In this document: positions 17,526 through 30,271 of the stretch, piece by piece
How positions within the stretch are numbered: position 1 is the stretch's first letter
How the letters are laid out: every line of letters starts with the position of its first letter
From: Abditibacteriaceae bacterium
GTDB taxonomy: Bacteria > Armatimonadota > Abditibacteriia > Abditibacteriales > Abditibacteriaceae
Direction of reading: 5' to 3'
Assembly (NCBI GenBank): GCA_031372065.1
Contig: JANMKN010000244.1
Location: 21,415-85,414 of the forward strand
Length of the DNA: 64,000 nucleotides
Translations under genes and position numbers: made by a program
The notes under the pieces: model-generated
Told to the model about the DNA's origin: nothing
Database searches by the model: none
What the model saw: the letters and a program-made list of their open reading frames with translations, nothing else

Positions 17526-20009
17526 ATGGATAGTTCCAGGAAGAAAATCATGAAACGAATGGCGATATTTTCCGGTTTTGCAGCCGGGGCAGCGGCGTTG
17601 GCATTTTTTGCCCAAAAAGCACCTGCCGTCCAATTGACAGTCCCCAATCCGAGTTTTGAACAGCGCGATCCGCAAAATCCAGATCAACCATTGGGTTATA
17701 GCCCCGTGAAAAATAATGCGGTTAATGGTGTGCTATGGGATCAGCGCGCGGCGCATACCGGACGCGCTTCGCTGTATGTGCGCAATGATAGCCCCGAAAA
17801 TGCTTTGTGGCAATTGACAGGTGGTCTCGATATTGTGCCCGGCCTGAAATATAAAGTTTCAATTTGGATAAAAACGCGCGAGGCGACTGGCTATAGCGGC
17901 GTGAGCGTGCGTTACCGTGCGGGGAATCAGTGGCTCAATGCGCCCTTGGGTTTGGGCGATGGCGAAGAAGCTAACACCAATTGGCATCAGTCTACAATTA
18001 CAATTGAGCCTCCTGATAACGCGAATTCAGTGTCCTTGTTTTTTGGTAATGGCCAAGGGCAGGGTGGGGAAGTGTGGTTTGATGATCTTTCTGTAACCAG
18101 CGCCTTAGATTCGGAAGTCAGCGAACGTTTGCCCGCCATGATGCAGAAAAATGATGCCTTGTTAAATCAACCCGACGACGGCACGCCGACAGGCCGGACG
18201 CGGCGCAGTCAGGCCGATCAATGGCGTCGTCGTGCTGGTGATTTTCAACGTCGTGCGGCGCACCCCGGCGGCTCAAAAGAAGAATTGACCTCACTTTCTA
18301 AAGAATGGGCAGCGCTCAACAGTGAATACGAGGAAACCCAGCGTTTGGGCGCGACCAACAATACCGTGCGCGAGTGGAGCCAGAAGATTCCCGGCCAAGC
18401 CGGAAAACCTGTGCCCTATGTTGCCGGTTGGGAAAATTCAGTAACCCGCGTTTGGTTGCGTGACATCGCTAATAGTTTGCAAATCAGTCCGGTGGGGCAC
18501 ATTGACGCCGCACGCGGTGAAACCGAGGCCATTCAACTGGGAGTTATGGCCGTCAACGCGCCGCTGAACGATGTTCGCGTTAATGTCGGCGATTTGGCTG
18601 GCGCTACGGGACGTATCGCCGGTGCCGTTACGCTGCATCCCGTCGGTTCTGTCAAAATTGAGCAGCCTAACACTGCTGGCAGACAGGTGATAGAACGCGA
18701 TTATCGCGGCTGGTGGCCGGATATTTTGCTGAATAATTTCGCCTTCGATGTGGCTCAAGGCGACACCGTTCCCGTTTGGATTTCGGTGACCATTCCACGC
18801 AACGCGCAGCCGGGAATTTACACGGCTCCTGTGGACATTGCCCCTGCTAATGCGGCGCCGGTGCGCTTGAATCTGGAAGTGCAAGTGTGGAATGTTGATT
18901 TGCCCGCGCAATGGCATTTTCGCAATATCATGAGTTTCAATCTGGATTTTGCTAAGGACTTCTATGAAGAGCAGTGGTCACCTGAGCTGCGCCAGAAGTT
19001 CTTGGAGTTCTTGACGGCGCGGCGCATTAATCTGACTACGCTTTATAAGGAGAACTTCACTTGGGACGAAATCAGCCGCGCTTTGTATGCTGGACAAAAC
19101 ACCGTAGTTGTTGATGCTATTCCACCCAATGTCGCTCTGGTGCCGGGCGCCAAAGTTCAATTAGCGCCCGCTGAACAAGCAAAGGTTAATAAAGCTTTAG
19201 ATGATTGGGTTCCACGCTTGCGCCAACTGGGATGGTTAGACCGCGCGCTGTTTTATGGTTTTGATGAAGTGCATTCTCGCAAAGAGTTTGAAACGGCGCA
19301 ACACGTTTTGGGTGCAATTAAACAGCGCTATCCCGGCTTGCAAACCATATCCACGATGAAAGATTCTACCTACGGTTTGCAGACCGGACTTACAGGGGTG
19401 GTTGATAATTTTGTCCCGCAGATGCCCTTTTACGATCCGCAAACTGCGGCGCAGGCCCGTCAACGTGGCACCAATGTTTGGTGGTATACAACTGATTGGA
19501 ATATGGAGCAGCCGCTATCGCGAAGCCGCCTTATTCCGTGGATGACAGCTAAAGTTGGCGTTGATGGTTTTGAGATTTGGGTCATCAATCGCTGGCGTGG
19601 CGAAGGTGGCGGAAGTGGTCAGAATCCTCGCCCGCGCAGCCAATGGGCTACCAATAATCAACTAGTGCAGAATCAGATTTTGAACGCATGGAATCCGGCA
19701 CTTGATGGCAAAAGCACCAATTCGACGGGCTGTTACTTGTATCCGGGTGTCAACGGTCCCTTATCGTCCCTGCGTCTCGAAAATTTCCGCGATGGCATTG
19801 AAGAATACGATTTGCTGGAGGCAGGTCGCCAGCGTTTGAACGCTTTGCGCCAGAAGGGCGGAAATGCCGCGAAAATCCAACAGTTATCGGCTGCTCTGCA
19901 AATCGAAGACAACTTTATTGCCGACGGCGATAAAGCCGATTATCGCCCTGAAGCGGTTTTGTTCCATCGCCAGCGTTTGTTGCAAGCCTTGGCCGCCACC
20001 GCGCAGTAA
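17526..20009 (+). CDS. Secreted carbohydrate-active protein: CBM4/9-like N-terminus plus DUF4091/GH123-like domain
   Basis: Signal peptide, NPSFE...VWFDD module, ARGETEAIQ, YGFDE, YPG...SSLRLENFRDGIEEYD. Confidence 0.7.
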   Translation: MDSSRKKIMKRMAIFSGFAAGAAALAFFAQKAPAVQLTVPNPSFEQRDPQNPDQPLGYSPVKNNAVNGVLWDQRAAHTGRASLYVRNDSPENALWQLTGGLDIVPGLKYKVSIWIKTREATGYSGVSVRYRAGNQWLNAPLGLGDGEEANTNWHQSTITIEPPDNANSVSLFFGNGQGQGGEVWFDDLSVTSALDSEVSERLPAMMQKNDALLNQPDDGTPTGRTRRSQADQWRRRAGDFQRRAAHPGGSKEELTSLSKEWAALNSEYEETQRLGATNNTVREWSQKIPGQAGKPVPYVAGWENSVTRVWLRDIANSLQISPVGHIDAARGETEAIQLGVMAVNAPLNDVRVNVGDLAGATGRIAGAVTLHPVGSVKIEQPNTAGRQVIERDYRGWWPDILLNNFAFDVAQGDTVPVWISVTIPRNAQPGIYTAPVDIAPANAAPVRLNLEVQVWNVDLPAQWHFRNIMSFNLDFAKDFYEEQWSPELRQKFLEFLTARRINLTTLYKENFTWDEISRALYAGQNTVVVDAIPPNVALVPGAKVQLAPAEQAKVNKALDDWVPRLRQLGWLDRALFYGFDEVHSRKEFETAQHVLGAIKQRYPGLQTISTMKDSTYGLQTGLTGVVDNFVPQMPFYDPQTAAQARQRGTNVWWYTTDWNMEQPLSRSRLIPWMTAKVGVDGFEIWVINRWRGEGGGSGQNPRPRSQWATNNQLVQNQILNAWNPALDGKSTNSTGCYLYPGVNGPLSSLRLENFRDGIEEYDLLEAGRQRLNALRQKGGNAAKIQQLSAALQIEDNFIADGDKADYRPEAVLFHRQRLLQALAATAQ

Positions 20010-20100
20010 GAAATGGAAATTGAAGCGGATTAGTGTGCATGGTAATCGCTTGTTCAAGCGATTACCATGCGAAGGATTATATTCTATAGTTTGCAGTGTG

Positions 20101-20166
20101 TTTAGAATTTTGCCGCAACGGGTATAATTAAAAAACAAATTTAAAAGTGGACAACTCTTTTGTCCA
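20101..20166 (+). promoter_or_regulatory. Candidate sigma70 promoter and downstream palindromic operator
   Basis: TTTAGA-16-TATAAT (20101-20128) and perfect TGGACAA-N5-TTGTCCA (20148-20166). Confidence 0.55.
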
Positions 20167-20423
20167 ATTGTCCGATTTGCTACCTCCATAGGGAGCGTAG
20201 TCCGTAGGTCGCTTCCAACGATCTATTCAGACTCAGCCAGATAATCAGGAAGTCTTTAAAGCACTTTTCGCTGGCCACGCCGCGAGGCTTTTTAGGATTA
20301 CTTTCTCACCTCGGCTTGTTGTCTGCTTAATTTTTCATCCCAATTTTAAGTGTTGTCATTGCCACCGGTTTTATCCCGGTTGTGCGATGCCACATCGCGT
20401 CGCTTCTGCGACGGAAGGAAATT

Positions 20424-21131
20424 ATGAACCCAATTCTCGCAGTTCGCCTGCGCGCTTTGCGCAAGGGCTTTACCTTGATCGAACTTTTGGTCGTCATAGC
20501 GATAATAGCGCTTCTCGCGGCGATTTTGTTTCCCGCGTTTGCCCGTGCCCGCGAAAACGCGCGGCGTAGCTCTTGCACATCGAACGTCAAGCAACTCGCT
20601 TCCGGGATGATGATGTATGTGCAGGACTACGACAACACTTTCCCGCCCCGCCCGCCTGCTCCTTCTGCCCCCGGCCCCTTTCCGTGCAGGCCATGCCGCA
20701 CCGATAACGGCGGCTGGAAGAATTTGGTGCAGCCTTACGTCAAAAGCGAACAGATATTCATCTGTCCCAGCGACCGCGGCGTGCCAACTGCTCTTGACCC
20801 CATGAACGCCGCGTTGCCGAAGCCTCCGCGTATGGCTGATTTCTATGGTAGCAGCTATTGCGTCAATGTGGTCGTCCAACGTTTGGGGTCTGAGGCCGAC
20901 ATTGCGCTGCCTGCGGAAACTTATATGGGTGCCGAAATTTTCCCGTGGCATGTGGCTACCAGCGATGCGGCAGCCTACATGACCGGCAGAACGACCAACG
21001 CTGTGCGCATGGCTTATTTTTGCGACGGACACGCCAAAATCACGCCTGAAAAGATCATTTTTGACCAGTGTGGTAGTCCGATAGGCCCCGCCATGCCGAT
21101 ACCGGGCGGCGGCTTGCAGGCTGTTCCATGA
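20424..21131 (+). CDS. Prepilin-type N-terminal cleavage/DUF1559 protein with CxxC
   Basis: [61 protein letters not shown] precedes ATG 20424. Confidence 0.9.
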
Positions 21132-21487
21132 AGTTCATAACTTCGCTTCTCATCCTGATGCTCAGTGCTGCCTGTTTCGGGGGTTGCACTCAGCATCAGG
21201 AAATCGCTCGCCCTGCCACTATTGAAACGGGAATCAGCAGTATCGCCGCGATTCAGAAGGCCAAGCTTTCCACACCGGTTATGGTGCGCGGCACTATGGT
21301 CGAAAAATGTCCTGTGGCTGGCTGCTGGTTCAAAATCCACGACGCTACGGGAACCATTAAAGTAGATGCAAAAGCGGCAGGTTTCACGGTGACGGAAGTG
21401 CCGTTGCAAACGGAGTTTACGGTGCGTGGCAAAGTGGTGCCCAACGGCGCGGAAAAGATGATCCAGGCAACGAGCGCCGATTATTAA
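21128..21487 (+). CDS. Small lipoprotein, OB-fold/DUF4920-like, CxxxxCW motif
   Basis: Lipobox-like [27 protein letters not shown]. Confidence 0.6.
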
Positions 21488-21500
21488 GCATTGGCCGCCC

Positions 21501-22139
21501 ATGACTTCCGCGCCGCGTCGCACACTTTTCAAATTACTGGCGCTGCTTGTTTTCGCCGTCGTGTGGCGCGTGGTGAACCCGCCCGAAACGCCGCTGGTTG
21601 TGGCGCCCAGACACCTCATTGAAGCGGCGCCGATGTGCCCGTGGCGCCAGCCCGAAGCTGATATGCGCGCCTTTTTTCCCGACGCGACGGGCTATCGAAC
21701 TGAAACGTTGATCTTGACCAGCCATCTGCGCGAACTGAATAAACTTCTTGGCCGCAGGCCGACGCCGGACGAAAATCCGCTTTATGTGCATCGCGTTTTA
21801 TCCCATTCGCGGCAAATCGGCAGCGTTTTAGTGCGTCGCGTCAAAGGCGAATACGGCGCGATTGAAATTGTTCTCGCCGTTAAACACAACGTTGTGGCTG
21901 GATTGCGCATTCAACGATTGCGCGAACCGGCGCGTATCGCGCAGGCGTTAAACTCGTCGGCGTGGCTACACTCCTTCGTGGGCAAAACCGTTGGCAGTTC
22001 GTGGCAAAATATGCCGCCGGTTCCTACCTTCGCGCGCGTTTCGGCAGCGGCAGTGTCCCAAGGCGCCCGCAGCCTGCTGATTTTGCACGAAGTCGGCGAA
22101 AAAAGCGGGACAATCAACGGCGCGCCGCTGCGCCAATAA
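21501..22139 (+). CDS. Membrane-anchored FMN_bind-like protein (degenerate)
   Basis: N-terminal TM; KGEYGAIEIVLAV...REP...WLHSFVGK pattern; no S/TGAT flavinylation motif. Confidence 0.55.
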   Translation: MTSAPRRTLFKLLALLVFAVVWRVVNPPETPLVVAPRHLIEAAPMCPWRQPEADMRAFFPDATGYRTETLILTSHLRELNKLLGRRPTPDENPLYVHRVLSHSRQIGSVLVRRVKGEYGAIEIVLAVKHNVVAGLRIQRLREPARIAQALNSSAWLHSFVGKTVGSSWQNMPPVPTFARVSAAAVSQGARSLLILHEVGEKSGTINGAPLRQ

Positions 22140-22148
22140 CTCCTCTCA

Positions 22149-23312
22149 ATGCTGCTTTTTGCCTTACGAAATCTCACGCGGCGCCCGCTACGCAACGGGC
22201 TAACACTTTCCGGTTTGGCCGTCGCCGTCGCGGTTTTGGCCTGTCTTTTAGCCTTTGGGCAAGGCTATCGCCGTGCATTAAGCGCCGAGTTGAATCGCAC
22301 CGGCGTGCAAATGATGCTGGTGCCGCTTGGCTGTCCTTATGATGCGGCGGCGCGCGTTTTAAAAGGCAAAACACTGGACAACTCGCTGCCGGAAAGCGCT
22401 TTAGCCGCCGTGCGAAGCGACCCCGCCGTGGCGATTGCGGCGCCACTGCTTTTGGCCGCCGTGCCGCGTCCCGCCGAAGGCCGCACCGATTTATGGGCTG
22501 GACTGGACAAAACTTCGCTGCAACTCAAGCCGTGGTGGCGTATGAAAGCTGGCCGGAATTGGTTTGCAAGCGCCAATTCGGTGATCCTCGGCGACGAAGC
22601 GGCGGCAGTGGAAACGCGCGTGCCCGGCGACAAATTTTACAGCCCTGAAACTGGCCAAACTTTGCGCGTGGCGGGCGTTTTGGAGCGCAGTGGCACCAGC
22701 GACGACAGTTTGTTTTTCGTGTCGTTGGCAACTGCGCAAAAAATGTTCAAGCAACCGCAGCGCCTCACCGCCGTGGCGATTCGCCTGCACGACCCGGCAC
22801 AAATGAGCGACGCGCTGGAACGCCTACAGAAAATCCCCGGCGCGCAGGTTGTGACGCTTTCCGAGATGATGGGCACCTTTCTCAATTTGGTCGGCACGGT
22901 GCGCACGCTGCTGCTTTCCATTGCCATTGTCGCCGTGACAATCAGCGTGCTGGGTGTTTTCAATACGCTACTGACCGCTGTGGTTGAGCGCATGACCGAA
23001 TTGTCGCTGCTACGCGCTTTAGGTGCCTCGCGTTCGCACGTTTTCGGCTTAATCGCGCTTGAATCGTTGCTTTTGGTCAGCGCCGGAAGCCTGTGCGGAC
23101 TGCTGCTGGCACGCGGTATCGGCGGCGTTTTTGAGAACCTTGTCAAGCGTTTCATGCCGCTTGCGCCAACGGAATCGCTGTTCACGCTCACGCCTCTTAT
23201 CATGCTGCAATGTTTATCATTGGGCCTCGGCATTGGCCTTTTAGCGGGCATTTTTCCGGCATGGCAGGCCAGCCAAATGCAGCCTGCTGATGCGGTGAAA
23301 TTGGAAAGCTAA
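22149..23312 (+). CDS. MacB/FtsX-type ABC permease
   Basis: RNLTRRPLR, VVERMTELSLLRALGA, GIFPAWQAS; GCPYDAA motif. Confidence 0.92.
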   Translation: MLLFALRNLTRRPLRNGLTLSGLAVAVAVLACLLAFGQGYRRALSAELNRTGVQMMLVPLGCPYDAAARVLKGKTLDNSLPESALAAVRSDPAVAIAAPLLLAAVPRPAEGRTDLWAGLDKTSLQLKPWWRMKAGRNWFASANSVILGDEAAAVETRVPGDKFYSPETGQTLRVAGVLERSGTSDDSLFFVSLATAQKMFKQPQRLTAVAIRLHDPAQMSDALERLQKIPGAQVVTLSEMMGTFLNLVGTVRTLLLSIAIVAVTISVLGVFNTLLTAVVERMTELSLLRALGASRSHVFGLIALESLLLVSAGSLCGLLLARGIGGVFENLVKRFMPLAPTESLFTLTPLIMLQCLSLGLGIGLLAGIFPAWQASQMQPADAVKLES

Positions 23313-23315
23313 TTT

Positions 23316-24494
23316 ATGAACTGGCTTTCTCTTTCCTTCAAAGACTGGCAGCGCCGCCCGCTGCGCATGGCGCTGACCACAGCAGGTGTGGCGATTGCCG
23401 TCGCTGCGTTGTGGAGTTTGCTCGCGTTTCAGCAGGGCTACCGCGATGGAATGCAAGGCGAACTCGACCGCCTCGGCGCACACGTTTTGGTGGTGCCCAA
23501 AGGCTGCCCCTACGACGCGGCCTCCATCGCATTGCATGGCGCCAGTTGGCCGTGTTATCTTCAGGAAAATTACCTCAAGCAGGTGCGCGCCGTGGACGGC
23601 GTGGCAACAGCGGCGCCGGTTTTTATGAACGCGCTTTACGATGAAGCGGGCGCGCAAATCGTTTACAACGGCGTCGAACCGAATCTGCTGACGCTCAAAC
23701 GTGGCTGGCACATCAACGGCGAATTTCCGCGCCGCCGTGGTGAAGTTATGCTCGGTTCCGAAGTAGCGGCGCGTATGAACGCGCGCGTCGGACAAAATAT
23801 CGTGTTGCCCAGTCTCAAGGCGCGCGGCACCGTTTGCGGCATTTTGGCGACCACGCCGGGCGCTGACGATGGTTTCTTGTTTGTGCCTCTCGCTGACGCG
23901 CAACGCCTTTTCGGGCGTCCACGCGAATTGACGCATATTTTAGTGCGCCTCTCCGACCCCGACAAAATGGAAGGCGTAGTTGCGCAACTGCGCGGCTGCG
24001 ACGCCGGACTCAGTATGAACGTCGTGCCGCTGACACACCTGTTTCACACCATTCAAAACTTGGTCAATTCGACGCGCCTCATGCTTGGTTGCATTACTTT
24101 GGTGGCGCTGCTTATCGCGGGCGCTGGAGTCAGTAACGCGATTCTTATGGCGATTTCCGAACGCACTCGCGAAATCGGTGTGATGCGTGCCGTTGGTGCC
24201 TCGCGCGGCGACATTTTTCGTTTGTTTTGGCTGGAAACGATGCAGGTTTGCTTGCTCGGTAGCGTGCTGGGCGTTGCACTGGCTTTTGCAGCCTCGCGTG
24301 GCGTCGAAAATTGGCTGCGCGCCCGTTTGCCATTTGCGCCGTCAGGTGCTTTAATCGGTTGGCATTGGTGGACGGTGGAAATTTGCTTTGTTTGCGCGCT
24401 GATATTGGGCAGCGTCGTCGGGCTCTTACCAGCGTGGCGCGCGGCTTCGCTTTCACCGATGAATGCCATGCGCCGCGATGGAGGCCGCTTGTGA
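23316..24494 (+). CDS. MacB/FtsX-type ABC permease
   Basis: ISERTREIGVMRAVGA, LPAWRAA; GCPYDAA motif. Confidence 0.92.
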   Translation: MNWLSLSFKDWQRRPLRMALTTAGVAIAVAALWSLLAFQQGYRDGMQGELDRLGAHVLVVPKGCPYDAASIALHGASWPCYLQENYLKQVRAVDGVATAAPVFMNALYDEAGAQIVYNGVEPNLLTLKRGWHINGEFPRRRGEVMLGSEVAARMNARVGQNIVLPSLKARGTVCGILATTPGADDGFLFVPLADAQRLFGRPRELTHILVRLSDPDKMEGVVAQLRGCDAGLSMNVVPLTHLFHTIQNLVNSTRLMLGCITLVALLIAGAGVSNAILMAISERTREIGVMRAVGASRGDIFRLFWLETMQVCLLGSVLGVALAFAASRGVENWLRARLPFAPSGALIGWHWWTVEICFVCALILGSVVGLLPAWRAASLSPMNAMRRDGGRL

Positions 24495-25186
24495 GAGAAA
24501 ATTACATCGTGCGCGCCGAAAATCTCACCAAAACCTACCGGCGCGGACGTGAAGAAGTGCGGGCGCTGGACAACGTGTCGTTTGAAATTAACAGCGGCGA
24601 ATTCGTGGCCGTCGTCGGCCCGTCTGGTGCCGGAAAAACTACGCTGCTCAATCTAATGGGTTGCATGGACACGCCCACTTCCGGCTCGCTGCGCATCGCG
24701 GGCCATGAGGTGCAAGGCTTGCCCGAAAGCGCGCTAACTCGATTGCGGCGCGAGCAAATTGGCTTTGTATTTCAGCATTTCGGTTTGATGCCAACGCTCA
24801 CCGTGGCCGAAAACGTTGCGTTGCCATCTCTCTTTTCGCGCCGCCGCGTGACGGCGCAGGTGGACGAGCTGCTCGAAAAAGTCGGCCTCACACAGCGGCG
24901 TAATCATCGACCGCACGAGCTTTCCGGCGGAGAAATGCAACGCGTCGCCATCGCTCGCGCCCTGATTAATCAGCCGCAAATTCTCCTTGCCGATGAGCCG
25001 ACTGGCAACCTCGATAGCGTCACCGGCGACGCTATCCTCGCCCTGTTTCACCAACTACTTGCTGATGGCCTGACCATCATTGTTGTGACGCACAATCCAT
25101 CCTTGTCGCATGCCGCCCAGCGCACTTTAATTTTGCGCGATGGGCGGCATCTGTCGGCGGGAATGTATCTGCCACGACAACGGTAG
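24491..25186 (+). CDS. ABC ATP-binding protein (LolD/MacB-type)
   Basis: GPSGAGKT, LSGGEMQRVAIARAL, LADEPTGNLD; GTG 24491 overlaps the upstream stop. Confidence 0.95.
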   Translation: MRENYIVRAENLTKTYRRGREEVRALDNVSFEINSGEFVAVVGPSGAGKTTLLNLMGCMDTPTSGSLRIAGHEVQGLPESALTRLRREQIGFVFQHFGLMPTLTVAENVALPSLFSRRRVTAQVDELLEKVGLTQRRNHRPHELSGGEMQRVAIARALINQPQILLADEPTGNLDSVTGDAILALFHQLLADGLTIIVVTHNPSLSHAAQRTLILRDGRHLSAGMYLPRQR

Positions 25187-25417: not shown

Positions 25418-27232
25418 TTATGGATTTTGGACGCAACGAAATCCAAGGTCTTGGTTGCCGTAACCAAGACCACACTTACGACGCATGGCGCATTTGAACC
25501 AACCGCCTGCCCCGTCCGACTCCGGGCGATACCACGAGCCGCCGCGTGTTGTATGTTCGGTTCCCGTCGGTGGGCCTGTCGGATTCCGTAAGGGAGACGT
25601 TTGATAATAATAATCGGCATACCAGTCTGAACACCATTCTTCGGCGTTCCCGGCCATATCCAAGCAGCCGTAAGGACTCACTCCGCTCGGAAAGCTGCCT
25701 ACCGGCGCCGTCAGTCCCGCGTCCATGATTTGCGTCATGCTGCACCACAAGCGCGACGTATCGAAGGTTGAACCCCAGGGATAAGTGCGTCCATCCGTGC
25801 CGCGCGCCGCTTTTTCCCATTGTGCTTCGGTGGGAAGACTGGCGCCCGCCCACTTGGCGTAGGCGTTCGCGTCGTCCCAGCTCACGTTGACGATGGGATG
25901 GTTGTCGTTCCAACTTCCTCCCCACGGACGAACCGGCATCGTCCGATTCGTGTCTTCGCAAAACGCGCGGTATTGCTGCACCGTCACTTCGGTTTCGTAG
26001 GCCCAGAAGCCGTCCACGTAAACCTGAGCCACCGGCCTCGTGTTCCACCAGCCATTCGCATCCACAGTGCCGCGCCTGAACTCCCCGGCGGGCACCCACA
26101 CCATTTTTGCGCCATCTTTGGCGTTGAGGCGTGCGCTGCCGATTCCAAGCTCTCCCGTCAGGAGTGCCCCCTCCGGCAATTTCGCCTCATAGGGTTTGTC
26201 CACCACCGGTTGTGGCCGGATCGCTATCGGATTGGCCGGCGCCTGGGGCTGCACAACCGGCAGTGTCGTCGGCACGGTAGGGCTTGTTGGCAGCGTCGTT
26301 GGAACGACCGGCAGCGCGTTTGGAGAAATCGGCAGCGTGCTTTGCGAATTCGCGGGAATCAGGGCCATGTCGCCGAAGCTGGCGCGGCCATCAGGGTTTT
26401 GCGAGGCTTCAAAAGTCGCTTGCACAAATTGGCGCGTTTTTCCCGCCACATAACGCTTGAGGCCGTCGAAAGTTATGTTCGCGTTGCCCGGCGTCAGGCT
26501 CGCCGCTTCGCCCGACAAGCCTTTCAAGAGAAAATTCGTGAACACGCCCAAAGAGCCATCCGGCATCTCCTGCGATTTTTCGCGCGGACGGCATGAGCGC
26601 AGTTCGGCAAATTGCGGCTCTGTGGCGAAGTCGCTGGTGCCAAAACCTGATTCGCTCGCCGCCTTGCCTAAAATATTGCGGCACGCATCGGTAATCATCA
26701 GACAGCGGCGCGGCGTTTTTCCCTCCAAACTGTCGCGCAGCTTGTTGTATGAGATGCAAGTTTCCGGCACGTCGGCGGCATCCGCGTCTAACGGCGCCAG
26801 ATAATCGAAATTCGTGTCGCGAACGCCGTGTCCCGAAAAAAAGAAGACGACTTCGCTGTTCTCGTTGATATTGGCCGTGAAGGTGCGCAACACGCGCATG
26901 ATATTCACGCGGTCGGGCTTGCGGCGCGCGTCGGCATCATCGGTCATTAAAATGATGGACAGCGCTGGAAAGCCCATTTTCTCTTCCAAAAAGCCCGCGA
27001 AGGCTTTGGCGTCCTTGCCGCAGGAGTGAAGCTTGCCCAGCGTCCAATAATCGTCCACGCCGATGACGACGGCGGTCTTGTCAACGCCGGGCGTGTTGGT
27101 AATCGGTGTGAGCTGAAAGGCCCGGCTTTCAGCCGTAAGCGCTTTGCCGCCTTCCGCTTTGGTCGCGACGGGATCTGCTTTAAGCGGTAGTGCAAAAACA
27201 ACCAGCAGGCTGAAAAGTATTGAGCGCATCAA
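25418..27232 (-). CDS. Secreted caspase-like (C14) plus FGE-sulfatase/SUMF1 domain protein
   Basis: Signal peptide; FSGHG and DACR dyad; Pro/Thr linker; LPTEAQWEKAARG, DMAGNAEEW, RGGSW, GFRC. Confidence 0.9.
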   Translation of the reverse strand: MMRSILFSLLVVFALPLKADPVATKAEGGKALTAESRAFQLTPITNTPGVDKTAVVIGVDDYWTLGKLHSCGKDAKAFAGFLEEKMGFPALSIILMTDDADARRKPDRVNIMRVLRTFTANINENSEVVFFFSGHGVRDTNFDYLAPLDADAADVPETCISYNKLRDSLEGKTPRRCLMITDACRNILGKAASESGFGTSDFATEPQFAELRSCRPREKSQEMPDGSLGVFTNFLLKGLSGEAASLTPGNANITFDGLKRYVAGKTRQFVQATFEASQNPDGRASFGDMALIPANSQSTLPISPNALPVVPTTLPTSPTVPTTLPVVQPQAPANPIAIRPQPVVDKPYEAKLPEGALLTGELGIGSARLNAKDGAKMVWVPAGEFRRGTVDANGWWNTRPVAQVYVDGFWAYETEVTVQQYRAFCEDTNRTMPVRPWGGSWNDNHPIVNVSWDDANAYAKWAGASLPTEAQWEKAARGTDGRTYPWGSTFDTSRLWCSMTQIMDAGLTAPVGSFPSGVSPYGCLDMAGNAEEWCSDWYADYYYQTSPLRNPTGPPTGTEHTTRGGSWYRPESDGAGGWFKCAMRRKCGLGYGNQDLGFRCVQNP

Positions 27233-27807: not shown

Positions 27808-28827
27808 TCACTCATTTTGCAGCAAGGGGAATAGCGCCCGATAAAACGGCGCGCCTTGGCCCCGGCTTTCTCCCGCCGTAGACAAGAGAGCTAACGTTTC
27901 CAGCAGCGATTCGCGGCACGCCTGTCCGACCAAGGCCGTCAAGGCGCTGCTATCGTCGGTGTTGTTTTGTCCATAGACCAGCGCCTCAAAATATTCCGCA
28001 CGCCGCACGTTGGTAATGACCGCGATGGGATAACCGGCCCGCACTAAAAACAGGTTCATCAGCAAGCGACCCGCGCGTCCGTTGCCGTCGCGGAAAGGGT
28101 GAATGGAAACCAAGCGATAGTGCGCCTGAGACGCCAACTCAATAGGATGCAGCGTCTGAACTTCGGGGGAAGCGATCCAAGCAGCGAACTCGTCCATCAG
28201 TTCGGGCACCTGATAATGCGGCGGATAAACGTGTTCCGTGCCCGCTGCGCGCACGTCCAAATTCCGGTAGCGGCCCGCCTCGCTCATGCCGGTGGCCCCA
28301 TCCACTGGCAACAATATCAGGCTGTGCAAGTTTTTGATTTCCCATTCGCCAACCGGAGTGCTGCCAGCGGCTAACTCTTCCATGTATTCCATCGCGTCGC
28401 GGTGGCCGATCACTTCCAAGTGCTCAACCAGAGTTTTGCCGCCAATCGTGATGCCGTGCGACAAGACCATCTCGGTTTCATGTTGCGTTAAGGTGTTGCC
28501 TTCAATGGCGTTGGAGTGATAGGTCAGGCGCACTGTGTAAAGCTGCTTGAGTTCGGCCACCACGGCGGGCGGCAAAGGCCGGAAGGAATCGAGCCAACTC
28601 TTCAAAGTATCGAGAGCCGCAAATTTTTCACCCTCCGTCAGCGCCGTTGCGATCAACTCCGTTGGCTCACAGGTGCCCCGGCGCATCTTGGCCACAAACG
28701 CATCGTAAAGCGCGGGCGCGTCTGCCGGTGGTAAAGCAGGGGAGGGACTGCTCGGTAAAGTTTTGTTTTGCGTCTCGCTTTTAATCATTTGGCCTGCGCT
28801 GTTCTTTGGTTGATTATCGGTCTCCAT
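27808..28827 (-). CDS. Fic-domain protein (class II, autoinhibited AMP transferase)
   Basis: HPFRDGNGRAGR active loop and N-terminal SNAIEGN inhibitory motif; ATG 28827 preferred. Confidence 0.92.
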   Translation of the reverse strand: METDNQPKNSAGQMIKSETQNKTLPSSPSPALPPADAPALYDAFVAKMRRGTCEPTELIATALTEGEKFAALDTLKSWLDSFRPLPPAVVAELKQLYTVRLTYHSNAIEGNTLTQHETEMVLSHGITIGGKTLVEHLEVIGHRDAMEYMEELAAGSTPVGEWEIKNLHSLILLPVDGATGMSEAGRYRNLDVRAAGTEHVYPPHYQVPELMDEFAAWIASPEVQTLHPIELASQAHYRLVSIHPFRDGNGRAGRLLMNLFLVRAGYPIAVITNVRRAEYFEALVYGQNNTDDSSALTALVGQACRESLLETLALLSTAGESRGQGAPFYRALFPLLQNE

Positions 28828-28916
28828 AGCCACTTTCCACCACCTCCTTTGCAAAATAAACGGCGGCTCACGACGTAGCACGCCGCGAAACGGTGCACGC
28901 CGCGAAAATCAGCCCC

Positions 28917-29174
28917 TCACAAATTATTATCTGGATAAGCCTTGCGCAAGGCCTCATAATCACGCATCGAGCGGCGCAAAGCCGCGCTCGGTGGTTTGGG
29001 GTTCTCAATTTCGTTCAGCAGAATCGCGTAATCGCGCTCCGAAAAGATGAGGCGCTCCCACGGCTCTTCTCCCGCGCCGACATCCGCTGCTGCCGCGCGA
29101 GCTTGCGCCAAACTGTCCTCCCGCTCGTCATCGTTCACCGTGTTGAGGCTTGGCGTGCGCTCTTGGTCGTTCAT
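28917..29174 (-). CDS. Short DUF1778-like protein lacking the RHH N-terminus
   Basis: LIFSERDYAILLNEIENPKPPSAALRR parallels TILSERDWELFVALMQNPPQPGQPLK of the neighbour. Confidence 0.6.
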   Translation of the reverse strand: MNDQERTPSLNTVNDDEREDSLAQARAAAADVGAGEEPWERLIFSERDYAILLNEIENPKPPSAALRRSMRDYEALRKAYPDNNL

Positions 29175-29287
29175 AACCCTTTGGCTGCTTTCTCTTCCCG
29201 TTTCTCGACGGCGAATTCGTGGTTTCTTATTTTAAACCGGCAATTCACCACATCAATTAGTATAATGGAAAGTAGAGGTTCCTTCCG

Positions 29288-29725
29288 ATGGCGACCCTTC
29301 GCAAACCCACTTCCCATCCCTCCAAAACACCGCAGACTAAAGCGCAGGCCAAAACGCCCCAAAAACGCGGGCGCAAACCGACCGGGCAACACGACGCCCG
29401 TCTTGATTTCCGCCTGTCCAGCGCGGCCAAAGCCAAAATCGAACAGGCGGCCTTAGCCAGTGGCCAGAGCCTGAGCGATTTCGCAGCGTCCACGCTGGTG
29501 CGCGAAGCCGAGCAAGTTTTGGAACGGAGCGCGGCGACGATCCTTTCCGAGCGCGACTGGGAACTTTTTGTGGCCTTGATGCAAAACCCACCGCAGCCGG
29601 GCCAGCCTTTGAAACAGTTCGTCGAAGCCTACCAAACCCACACGCACACCACAGGCGAAGTCACGGTCGTTGACGCCGATCTGTTCGACCATATTCCCGC
29701 TGAATTCGGCCTCGATCCTCATTAA
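29288..29725 (+). CDS. DUF1778 RHH antitoxin (TacA/AtaR-like)
   Basis: ARLDFRLS..K..IEQAA..G.SLSDF and LSERDW; directly upstream of a GNAT. Confidence 0.88.
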   Translation: MATLRKPTSHPSKTPQTKAQAKTPQKRGRKPTGQHDARLDFRLSSAAKAKIEQAALASGQSLSDFAASTLVREAEQVLERSAATILSERDWELFVALMQNPPQPGQPLKQFVEAYQTHTHTTGEVTVVDADLFDHIPAEFGLDPH

Positions 29726-30271
29726 ATGCCCCTTAAAATGGCATCTTTCACCATTGAGCCGCTTCAGTCCAGCCACGACCGCGCCGCTTTCGATTGTGGG
29801 CAGGAAAGCCTCAACACTTACCTGAAACGCTACGCCCGTCAAAATGCCGGTCGTTTTATCGGCATTACCTATGTCGCGGTGCCCCAAAACGAGCCGCAAC
29901 GCATCGCCGCTTATTACTCGCTCTCCACCATCCGTATCGAGCGCGAGCATTTGCCGGATGCTTTGCCGTTGCCGCGCTACCCGGTGCCCAGTCTGCTTTT
30001 AGCGCGCTTGGCTGTGGACAAAAACTTTCAAGGCCAAAAACTCGCGGCGGTGCTGCTGCTCAACATTTTCGAGCGCACCAGTCGCTTTGCCGCCGAAGTC
30101 GGATTTTATGCGCTGGAAGTGGTGGCCCTCAACGACACGGCGCGCACTTTCTACGAGCATTTCCAATTTGTCGCGCTGGCCGATAAAAAATTGCATGATT
30201 CCCTCCATCTTTATTTGCCAGTGGAAACCATGCGGCGTTTGTATTTAGACACACCGGACAGGTCTTCATAG
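29726..30271 (+). CDS. GNAT acetyltransferase toxin (TacT/AtaT-like)
   Basis: HDRAAFDCGQESLNTYL, PRYPVP.LLLARLAVD..FQGQ, FYEHFQF. Confidence 0.9.
   Translation: MPLKMASFTIEPLQSSHDRAAFDCGQESLNTYLKRYARQNAGRFIGITYVAVPQNEPQRIAAYYSLSTIRIEREHLPDALPLPRYPVPSLLLARLAVDKNFQGQKLAAVLLLNIFERTSRFAAEVGFYALEVVALNDTARTFYEHFQFVALADKKLHDSLHLYLPVETMRRLYLDTPDRSS

Follow-up and report, generated by a model that had tools for sequence, protein, structure and literature searches.

A cysteine-bearing MacB-type transporter operon with a type IV pilin-like protein in Abditibacteriaceae, possibly for copper transfer

The window analysed here, a stretch of 64,000 nucleotides (nt) from the genome of an Abditibacteriaceae bacterium (Armatimonadota; contig JANMKN010000244.1 of assembly GCA_031372065.1), holds a six-gene operon that encodes a MacB-type ATP-binding cassette (ABC) transporter together with three envelope proteins, one of them a pilin-like protein of the DUF1559 type. 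The operon belongs to a wider transporter family, with members in many phyla and in some archaea, whose mark is a MacB-type permease with a GCP[YF][DE] loop. It is an apparently undescribed variant of type VII ABC systems; no description of the operon was found in the open literature searched, although the supplements of the flavinylation survey could list such clusters. We favour, at somewhat below even confidence, the reading that the ATPase of a MacB-type system with cysteine-bearing envelope parts drives the transfer of a thiol-binding metal, Cu(I) being the likeliest, between carriers in the periplasm and a partner that crosses the outer membrane, here probably the CxxC pilin.

The six open reading frames (ORFs) lie on one strand at 20424–25186 (+), behind a candidate promoter and a candidate leader RNA.

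20101..20128, +: sigma-70-like promoter candidate (TTTAGA, 16 nt, TATAAT), 10/12 consensus matches, a consensus match only
20166..20245, +: two-hairpin leader RNA candidate, probable cis-regulator, conserved in relatives, no Rfam match
20424..21131, +: DUF1559 prepilin-like protein, 235 aa; N_methyl and DUF1559 (Pfam), type IV pilin fold, invariant C51, C88, C91, C114, C146 and C216
21128..21487, +: OB-fold (BOF/YgiW-like) lipoprotein, 119 aa; BOF match, lipobox C20, CxxxxC pair C61/C66
21501..22139, +: membrane-anchored FMN_bind/RnfG-fold protein, 212 aa; N-terminal Cys46, conserved QRxRE, no flavinylation motif
22149..23312, +: MacB-type permease A, 387 aa; MacB_PCD and FtsX, GCPYD loop Cys62
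23316..24494, +: MacB-type permease B, 392 aa; MacB_PCD and FtsX, GCPYD loop Cys64, periplasmic C80 and C228
24491..25186, +: LolD/MacB-type ABC ATPase, 231 aa; ABC_tran

A sequence-only reading of this stretch had described six tightly packed, co-occurring genes with a cysteine motif in each extracytoplasmic component, and this description is borne out: the genes form a conserved operon, the junctions are, in order, an overlap of 4, gaps of 13, 9 and 3, and an overlap of 4 (the ATPase starts at a GTG codon at 24491), and the motifs are CRPC (C88/C91) in the pilin, CPVAGCW (C61/C66) in the lipoprotein, MCPWR (C46) in the FMN-like protein and GCPYDAA in permeases A (C62) and B (C64). The two permeases are otherwise divergent, as had been claimed, with 35% identity. 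The proposed conservation of the cysteines stood for the pilin, whose CxxC is present in 117/117 aligned homologues, and for the OB-fold pair, kept in 33/33 pilin-type rows, but not fully for the FMN-like protein, whose cysteine is kept in 27/33 pilin-type rows.

The prepilin carries a class III signal (G/FTLIE), as expected of a type IV pilin. All six cysteines are invariant in the 117 aligned homologues, and a sequence search found the CxxC in 120/120. The predicted structure (predicted local distance difference test 90, predicted template modelling score 0.82) has type IV pilins as its top fold matches, at modest scores, the best being Thermus PilA4 (Z 5.7, root-mean-square deviation 3.9, 122 aligned residues); a Foldseek search with the model gave no match at E ≤ 0.001. 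The pilin gene stands first or last in the operon and stays with it through this change of gene order. The genome of the window encodes 48 DUF1559-type prepilins, of which only the operon protein matches the subfamily strongly (1e-60 versus about 1e-6), as well as 6 secretin matches and 3 PilT. With 48 paralogues and one strong match, the suggestion that the operon gives DUF1559 proteins at large a role is not supported, and we reject a general role for all of them. Prepilins with an N_methyl and DUF1559 N-terminus also form an expanded family in Planctomycetes (DUF1559/SBP_bac_10), for which the accessible part of the source gives no function (PMC8567305). The operon pilin resembles these in its N-terminus and in its many paralogues, but its subfamily is a separate one, marked by an invariant C[KR][PA]CR and tied to one transporter operon. 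The CxxC subfamily was also seen in a protein labelled Verrucomicrobia (P0215).

The OB-fold gene has a BOF match, with DUF4920 below the cut-off; a literature search on DUF4920 found no papers. The third gene gave no hit in a Pfam scan, and its product is related to RnfG/NqrC (RnfG E 5e-5; Atlas FMN_bind 0.91). ApbE is described, in the available part of a flavinylation survey, as modifying the [S/T]GA[S/T] motif of flavin mononucleotide (FMN)-binding FMN_bind proteins (PMC8238504). The genome does encode ApbE, and the motif is absent at the aligned position of the FMN-fold protein, and for that reason we reject flavin electron transfer. An Arg-rich patch is retained, and the single, unpaired cysteine is kept in 61/63 rows.

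Both permeases match Pfam MacB_PCD and FtsX above cut-offs, and their best PDB matches are MacB (5gko, E 3e-39) and LolE, with MacB and LolE/LolF as structural relatives. MacB-type transporters act on periplasmic partners by mechanotransmission. In MacB an arginine occupies the position of the permease cysteine, in the loop that follows the first periplasmic strand. Among 48,269 six-frame ORFs of the genome, GCPY[DE] occurs only in these two permeases; GCPY[DE]A is present in 111 of the best 120 permease B homologues, and GCP is kept in all 40 variants listed. The loop cysteine, single and unpaired, is kept in 95/95 rows, which were selected on the motif. A natural 771-aa fusion of both GCP permeases (P0241) is consistent with a heterodimer. 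A search for related loci with a single permease as query gave no match. The operon thus shares MacB_PCD–FtsX permeases and a LolD/MacB-type ATPase with MacB and LolCDE (type VII ABC), but its permeases carry the loop cysteine, no MacA, TolC or LolA partner was seen in the family core, and its scores of 67–83 bits lie far below the NCBIfam equivalog cut-offs of 362 and above for MacAB–TolC and LolCDE proper.

Two other systems invite comparison. NosDFY–NosL is an ABC system that passes copper between periplasmic carriers without membrane passage; NosL is found in 6 loci of relatives, but the permease class differs, an outer-membrane barrel or pilin belongs to the family core, and no NosD or NosZ was seen. 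MacB-type permeases also occur in Ftr1–P19 clusters, to which the operon had been likened through Ftr1–P19/Tp34 iron uptake. Such clusters include FMN-binding or thioredoxin genes, according to the accessible text of the flavinylation survey (PMC8238504), so that an FMN_bind-fold gene in a transport cluster is common to both. However, the window operon has neither P19 nor Ftr1; of 284 non-redundant candidate neighbours, 136 were scanned, and none of these was P19, Ftr1 or DUF2318. The flavinylation motif is missing from the FMN-fold protein as well. The analogy is not supported, and we reject identity as an Ftr1–P19 locus.

A search for GCPY[DE]A-type permeases with tabulation of their neighbourhoods, as the sequence-only reading had proposed, found a conserved core and conserved cysteines across many phyla. 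A pattern search for the GCPYE loop over genome contigs found at least 120 loci, of which 80 were taken with flanks, and 79 of these 80 held a GCP permease ORF. The core of the family comprises an OB-fold or YtkA-like protein, an outer-membrane barrel, a non-flavinylated FMN-fold protein, one or more permeases and an ATPase. Among the 80 loci listed, 51 have a barrel, 35 an OB-fold gene and 36 a YtkA-like gene; none has a pilin, GCPYD loops being excluded by the pattern. No locus has both OB-fold and YtkA genes, which suggests that a Cys carrier and a Met/His carrier (MPSM..H in 33/33 YtkA-like proteins) fill one slot. Every barrel locus has an FMN-fold gene (51/51), 11 loci have the FMN-fold gene without a barrel and 17 have neither, including archaeal or Chloroflexota/Dehalococcoidales loci (L067, L077, L097, L048 and L070), three of them being short contigs. 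The barrel, in which His and Met residues are kept, is similar to Porin_O_P-type clusters (44% of one Atlas cluster). A Geobacteraceae/Holophagales variant (L063, L066, L088, L089 and L103) lacks the barrel and has NosL, a cytochrome c joined to a periplasmic binding domain, or both; the NosL of L066 forms a fusion with a Met/His-rich barrel-like region.

In Armatimonadota, some loci have the pilin and others the barrel. The FMN-fold gene was found in 54/401 genomes of the phylum, and the 54 loci contain a pilin in 30 cases, a barrel in 17, both in none and neither in 7 (six of the seven cut by contig ends). Another 33 metagenome loci, picked on the pilin motif, have the OB-fold gene in 24 cases and the barrel in none. 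A few of these loci represent one and the same genome twice (L030/L059, L083/L220, L099/L212, L184/L203 and L022/L177). No barrel homologue was found in the genome of the window; one other genome (G368) has barrel-type and pilin-type operons at separate loci (L195 and L211). In a tree of the FMN-fold protein, barrel-type and pilin-type proteins fall on opposite sides of one well-supported branch, apart from one long, mis-trimmed row (L110); this quick tree supports a single split and gives no direction. The exclusivity of pilin and barrel thus represents one evolutionary event. In this lineage the pilin-like protein holds the gene position of the outer-membrane pore of relatives, which suggests a testable job for one DUF1559 subfamily. 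The pilin had been proposed as the ligand-capturing subunit: it does look like a working subunit, following the operon through the change of gene order and never occurring with a barrel, but 'capturing' implies uptake, and the regulators of the family lean towards induction by excess metal.

Those regulators, together with neighbouring genes, make copper the best-supported cargo for the family. A CsoR-family gene is present in 14 of the 79 wide loci listed, with Cys-His-Cys and Tyr in 13/13 aligned proteins; the one scanned had copper-sensing RicR as its best match, below the cut-off. CsoR-type operators (ATAC-N7-10-GTAT) occur in 14/141 upstream regions against a shuffle mean of 2.6 and maximum of 7, and 12 of them lie at csoR loci. 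In the same regions, NiCo, cobalamin and CymR-like motifs were absent (0/141), and Fur-like motifs, in 17 regions against a shuffle mean of 12.5 and maximum of 18, did not exceed shuffles. NosL lies in 6 loci of relatives, a cupredoxin in 2 and YHS in 1, and YtkA has been linked to metal loading of cytochrome c oxidase in Bacillus (PMC12362106, from the part available). Cys-rich ORFs ending in RAPP head 10 operons of Armatimonadota, against 3 Cys-poor antisense hits. In the accessible part of work on Bordetella, secreted Cys-rich RAPP upstream ORFs of the CruR type sense copper (PMC9426467); the ORFs of the 10 related operons share this secreted, Cys-rich, RAPP-ending form with CruR/CutF (DUF2946) leaders, but do not score as DUF2946 (4 tested) and are absent from pilin-type loci, including the window. 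Elsewhere in the genome of the window, a copper locus (G000:C329:21786-31747) combines a Cys-rich RAPP leader at its head, a NosL-like gene, csoR, a copA-like ATPase and a cupredoxin, the copA and cupredoxin being named from sequence; a divergent DUF1559 prepilin lies there too.

Should the operon move a metal in this way, the OB-fold lipoprotein, or the Met/His YtkA-like protein in other lineages, would carry it, and in the course of the ATPase cycle the metal would be loaded or stripped by the pair of GCP loops at the base of the permeases' periplasmic domains. The FMN-fold protein would act as an adaptor to the outer-membrane partner and not as a flavoprotein, and the pilin, as part of a type IV filament, would take the cargo through a secretin. 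Two slots would be exchangeable, that of the carrier (OB or YtkA) and that of the outer-membrane partner (barrel or pilin). Both the control by CsoR and the presence of a RAPP leader on copA speak for induction by excess, and hence for removal over capture, so that we lean slightly towards outward removal under metal or thiol stress. For the pilin clade, we infer copper from homology and from the type of regulon.

Several observations weigh against copper transfer. The direct copper markers belong to the barrel-type relatives, and none was found beside a pilin-type operon by sequence clustering, the flanks being mostly not Pfam-scanned. The genes co-regulated with pilin-type operons are of thiol-redox and TauT type, not copper genes. 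In the wide set, sulfur-metabolism genes lie within 8 kb of 10/35 OB-type loci (and near 4/36 YtkA-type loci), whereas copper markers lie at 8/35 OB-type loci. All 13 aligned CsoR proteins have an N-terminal His, which fits Ni/Co sensors, and none of the 4 RAPP leaders tested matched DUF2946 (PF11162). The cysteines themselves are not beyond loss, the second OB cysteine being missing in 4/38 wide rows and the FMN-fold cysteine in 6/33 pilin-type rows, and the six pilin cysteines could simply be three disulfides. Finally, the pilin/barrel exclusivity counts as one evolutionary split, not many. The earlier idea of a thiol-based metal or redox relay is supported in part: the genes co-occur, the cysteines are conserved and the context of relatives points to a thiol-liganded metal, copper first.

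The pilin-type operons have regulatory signals of their own. Three TTAA repeats with an 11-bp period occur in 19 of 52 pilin-type upstream regions (which include a few loci with the pilin off the contig), with a −10 box 15 nt further on in 17 of the 19; the triple repeat is found in 0/18 barrel-type Armatimonadota regions, 1/71 wide loci and no shuffles. Repeats arranged in this way also stand before pstS, phoU, alkaline phosphatase and Porin_O_P genes, a finding that first suggested PhoB, whose site in Synechocystis is three TTAA repeats (PMC11126600, in its available part). The base that follows TTAA differs, however: it is G in 0/18 repeats at nine phosphate-related genes, 26/38 at the operon and 7/10 at five other sites, related loci not being independent. 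Similar repeats are the sites of BqsR (TTAAG-N6-TTAAG; Fe2+, PMC4358008) and DsbR (TTAA-N7-TTAA; Cu, bioRxiv 2020.08.17.255257); as far as the accessible parts of these sources go, the DsbRS and BqsRS regulons resemble the present one in having repeats of like kind before thiol or envelope genes. The TTAAG class, as retrieved by pattern searches that required G or T, has further members upstream of a multiheme-TPR gene and its ASPIC/UnbV partners, of DUF3179, of a TlpA-like redoxin, of a TauT-type ABC transporter whose binding protein has a CHLTC motif, and of a prepilin with a CMD gene after it. In about eight genomes the TTAAG box stands at the multiheme arrangement, in which FG-GAP/ASPIC-UnbV genes come after a membrane multiheme cytochrome-TPR gene (L324:2762-8137 and L339:1755-5745). 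At L331:940-1677, a TTAAG-type box is followed by a DUF1559 prepilin that contains 17 Met and may be a copper binder of the Met type. Eight response-regulator loci fetched in a search for the regulator of the box had the box in none; one genome (G063) encodes, besides PhoB, four regulators whose best hit, below the cut-off, is a heavy-metal response regulator model. TTAAC repeats mark a PHO-type regulon in Armatimonadota (L240 and L245, G000:C382:29000-37700; L251–L270) with pstS, phoU, alkaline phosphatase, SLH-Porin_O_P, phosphoesterases and many DUF1559 prepilins, suggesting that other DUF1559 subfamilies serve phosphate scavenging.

The window operon has no TTAA-type box, although its genome has such boxes at pstS; it has the leader RNA candidate instead. 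This two-hairpin element (20166–20245) lies downstream of the TATAAT box, and a TATAAT-like box precedes it in relatives too. First seen in four loci, it was recovered in two further places outside the profile. On these six sequences, 84% of cells are paired and covariation exceeds all 500 shuffles and all slid controls, the structure being derived from the same six sequences with two rows out of register in helix 1. The resulting model gave 14 hits in 10/31 genomes of the class, all in Abditibacteriaceae, the family of the window. The eight new hits precede CHLTC/TauT-type ABC genes (3), transglutaminase-like genes (2), the prepilin-CMD type (2, one of them behind an Asn/Gln-rich ORF) and an alginate-export-like barrel (1), and none precedes a phosphate gene. 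Rfam 15 gave no match, either for nine loci at the gathering threshold or for window positions 19900–20500 at E up to 10, and a strict pattern was found in 5/301 genomes, four already known and one probably by chance, with 5 control hits. The genome of the window has three copies, at this operon, at an Asn/Gln-rich coiled-coil ORF (C395:18593-18667, L348) and at a TauT-type ABC transporter (C80:1251-1325, L363). The targets of the leader overlap those of the TTAAG box, so that gene sets that overlap would be under RNA control in one family and under the control of a DNA box in others. Small Asn/Gln-rich coiled-coil proteins without a Pfam match recur in the leader regulon (L022:5945-6199, G000:C395:18138-19070 and L355:1017-1253). 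An AhpD/CMD-like gene that an in-frame TGA interrupts downstream of a Cys motif, likely a selenoprotein gene, lies beside the operon at L022:6227-6811 and beside the CHLTC binding protein at G000:C129:12221-13042 (L349).

Among the explanations that compete with copper transfer, the one we take most seriously, while still thinking it unlikely, is that the cysteines carry sulfur or redox equivalents and not metal, in the uptake or recycling of a thiol, persulfide or selenium compound or in envelope thiol repair. The sulfur neighbours of the 10/35 OB-type loci (Rrf2, CysK, NifS/NifU, ThiS/ThiF, Thi4, MnmA and SufBD) speak for it, as do Rrf2 and an SsuA-like ABC transporter divergent from two pilin-type operons (L210 and L216) and a regulon that holds AhpD/CMD proteins, one split by TGA, a TlpA-like redoxin, DUF3179 and the TauT-type CHLTC binding protein. 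CsoR with its His ligand, the operators, YtkA, NosL and cupredoxin would be unexpected in a sulfur system, however, and a DsbD-like electron source is not in the core, being seen at one locus only (L104). Copper stress, moreover, raises the demand for cysteine and Fe–S clusters, which could explain the sulfur-gene neighbours.

Rather less probable is that the cysteines are structural disulfides or lipid anchors in an envelope-remodelling, MacB/Lol-like transporter for another cargo, with the pilin as a co-regulated passenger. The even numbers of cysteines in the pilin (6) and OB domain (2) would fit, as would the permeases' closest structural relatives, MacB and LolE/LolF; DUF1559 genes are often flanked by genes for secreted proteins, and the swap of pilin and barrel happened once. 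Yet the permease and FMN-fold cysteines are unpaired and nevertheless kept in the 95 motif-selected and 61/63 rows given above, the pilin follows the operon through its rearrangement, and the links to metal regulators would be left unexplained. We give the lowest probability, a slim one, to the pilin-type operon being part of a phosphate-starvation regulon that scavenges a phosphorus compound or supplies metal to phosphatases. Such a role would account for the PhoB-like triple TTAA in 19/52 regions, for the Porin_O_P-like barrel and perhaps for the Arg-rich patch of the FMN-fold protein; it is opposed by the base after TTAA, by boxes at pstS and none at the operon in the genome of the window, by the absence of phosphate genes among the new leader hits and by the heavy-metal-like regulators of G063. 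Copper transfer by a cysteine-bearing MacB-type machine is our preferred, tentative reading.

Further features lie near the operon. A perfect inverted repeat at 20037–20070, directly 3′ of a GH123 gene (17526–20009), is probably the terminator of that gene. Downstream lie a caspase-like and FGE-sulfatase fusion (25418–27232, −) and, at 27808–30271, a Fic-like gene and a DUF1778/GNAT-like toxin–antitoxin pair, both named from sequence only. At another locus (L345:286-4264), an ArsR-like gene and a gene for an ArsM-like methyltransferase come immediately after phoB-phoR-phoU.

These results define a transporter family over many little-studied phyla and some archaea that was not found described in the searches run, and they suggest for one DUF1559 subfamily a specific, testable role as stand-in for an outer-membrane pore. 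More speculatively, and in our judgement improbable as a whole, the type IV pilin may be the outer-membrane step of ABC metal transfer, loaded or unloaded at its CxxC by the MacB-type machine and passing through a secretin in place of a porin, in an operon switched by an undescribed riboswitch whose metal or thiol signal is also that of a two-component system in sister families. Because the targets of this candidate riboswitch match a transcription-factor regulon of sister families, its ligand can be sought directly. If the pilin does take the outer-membrane step, other DUF1559 subfamilies would be cargo-specific pilins for other nutrients, and type IV filaments would offer metals a path across the envelope.

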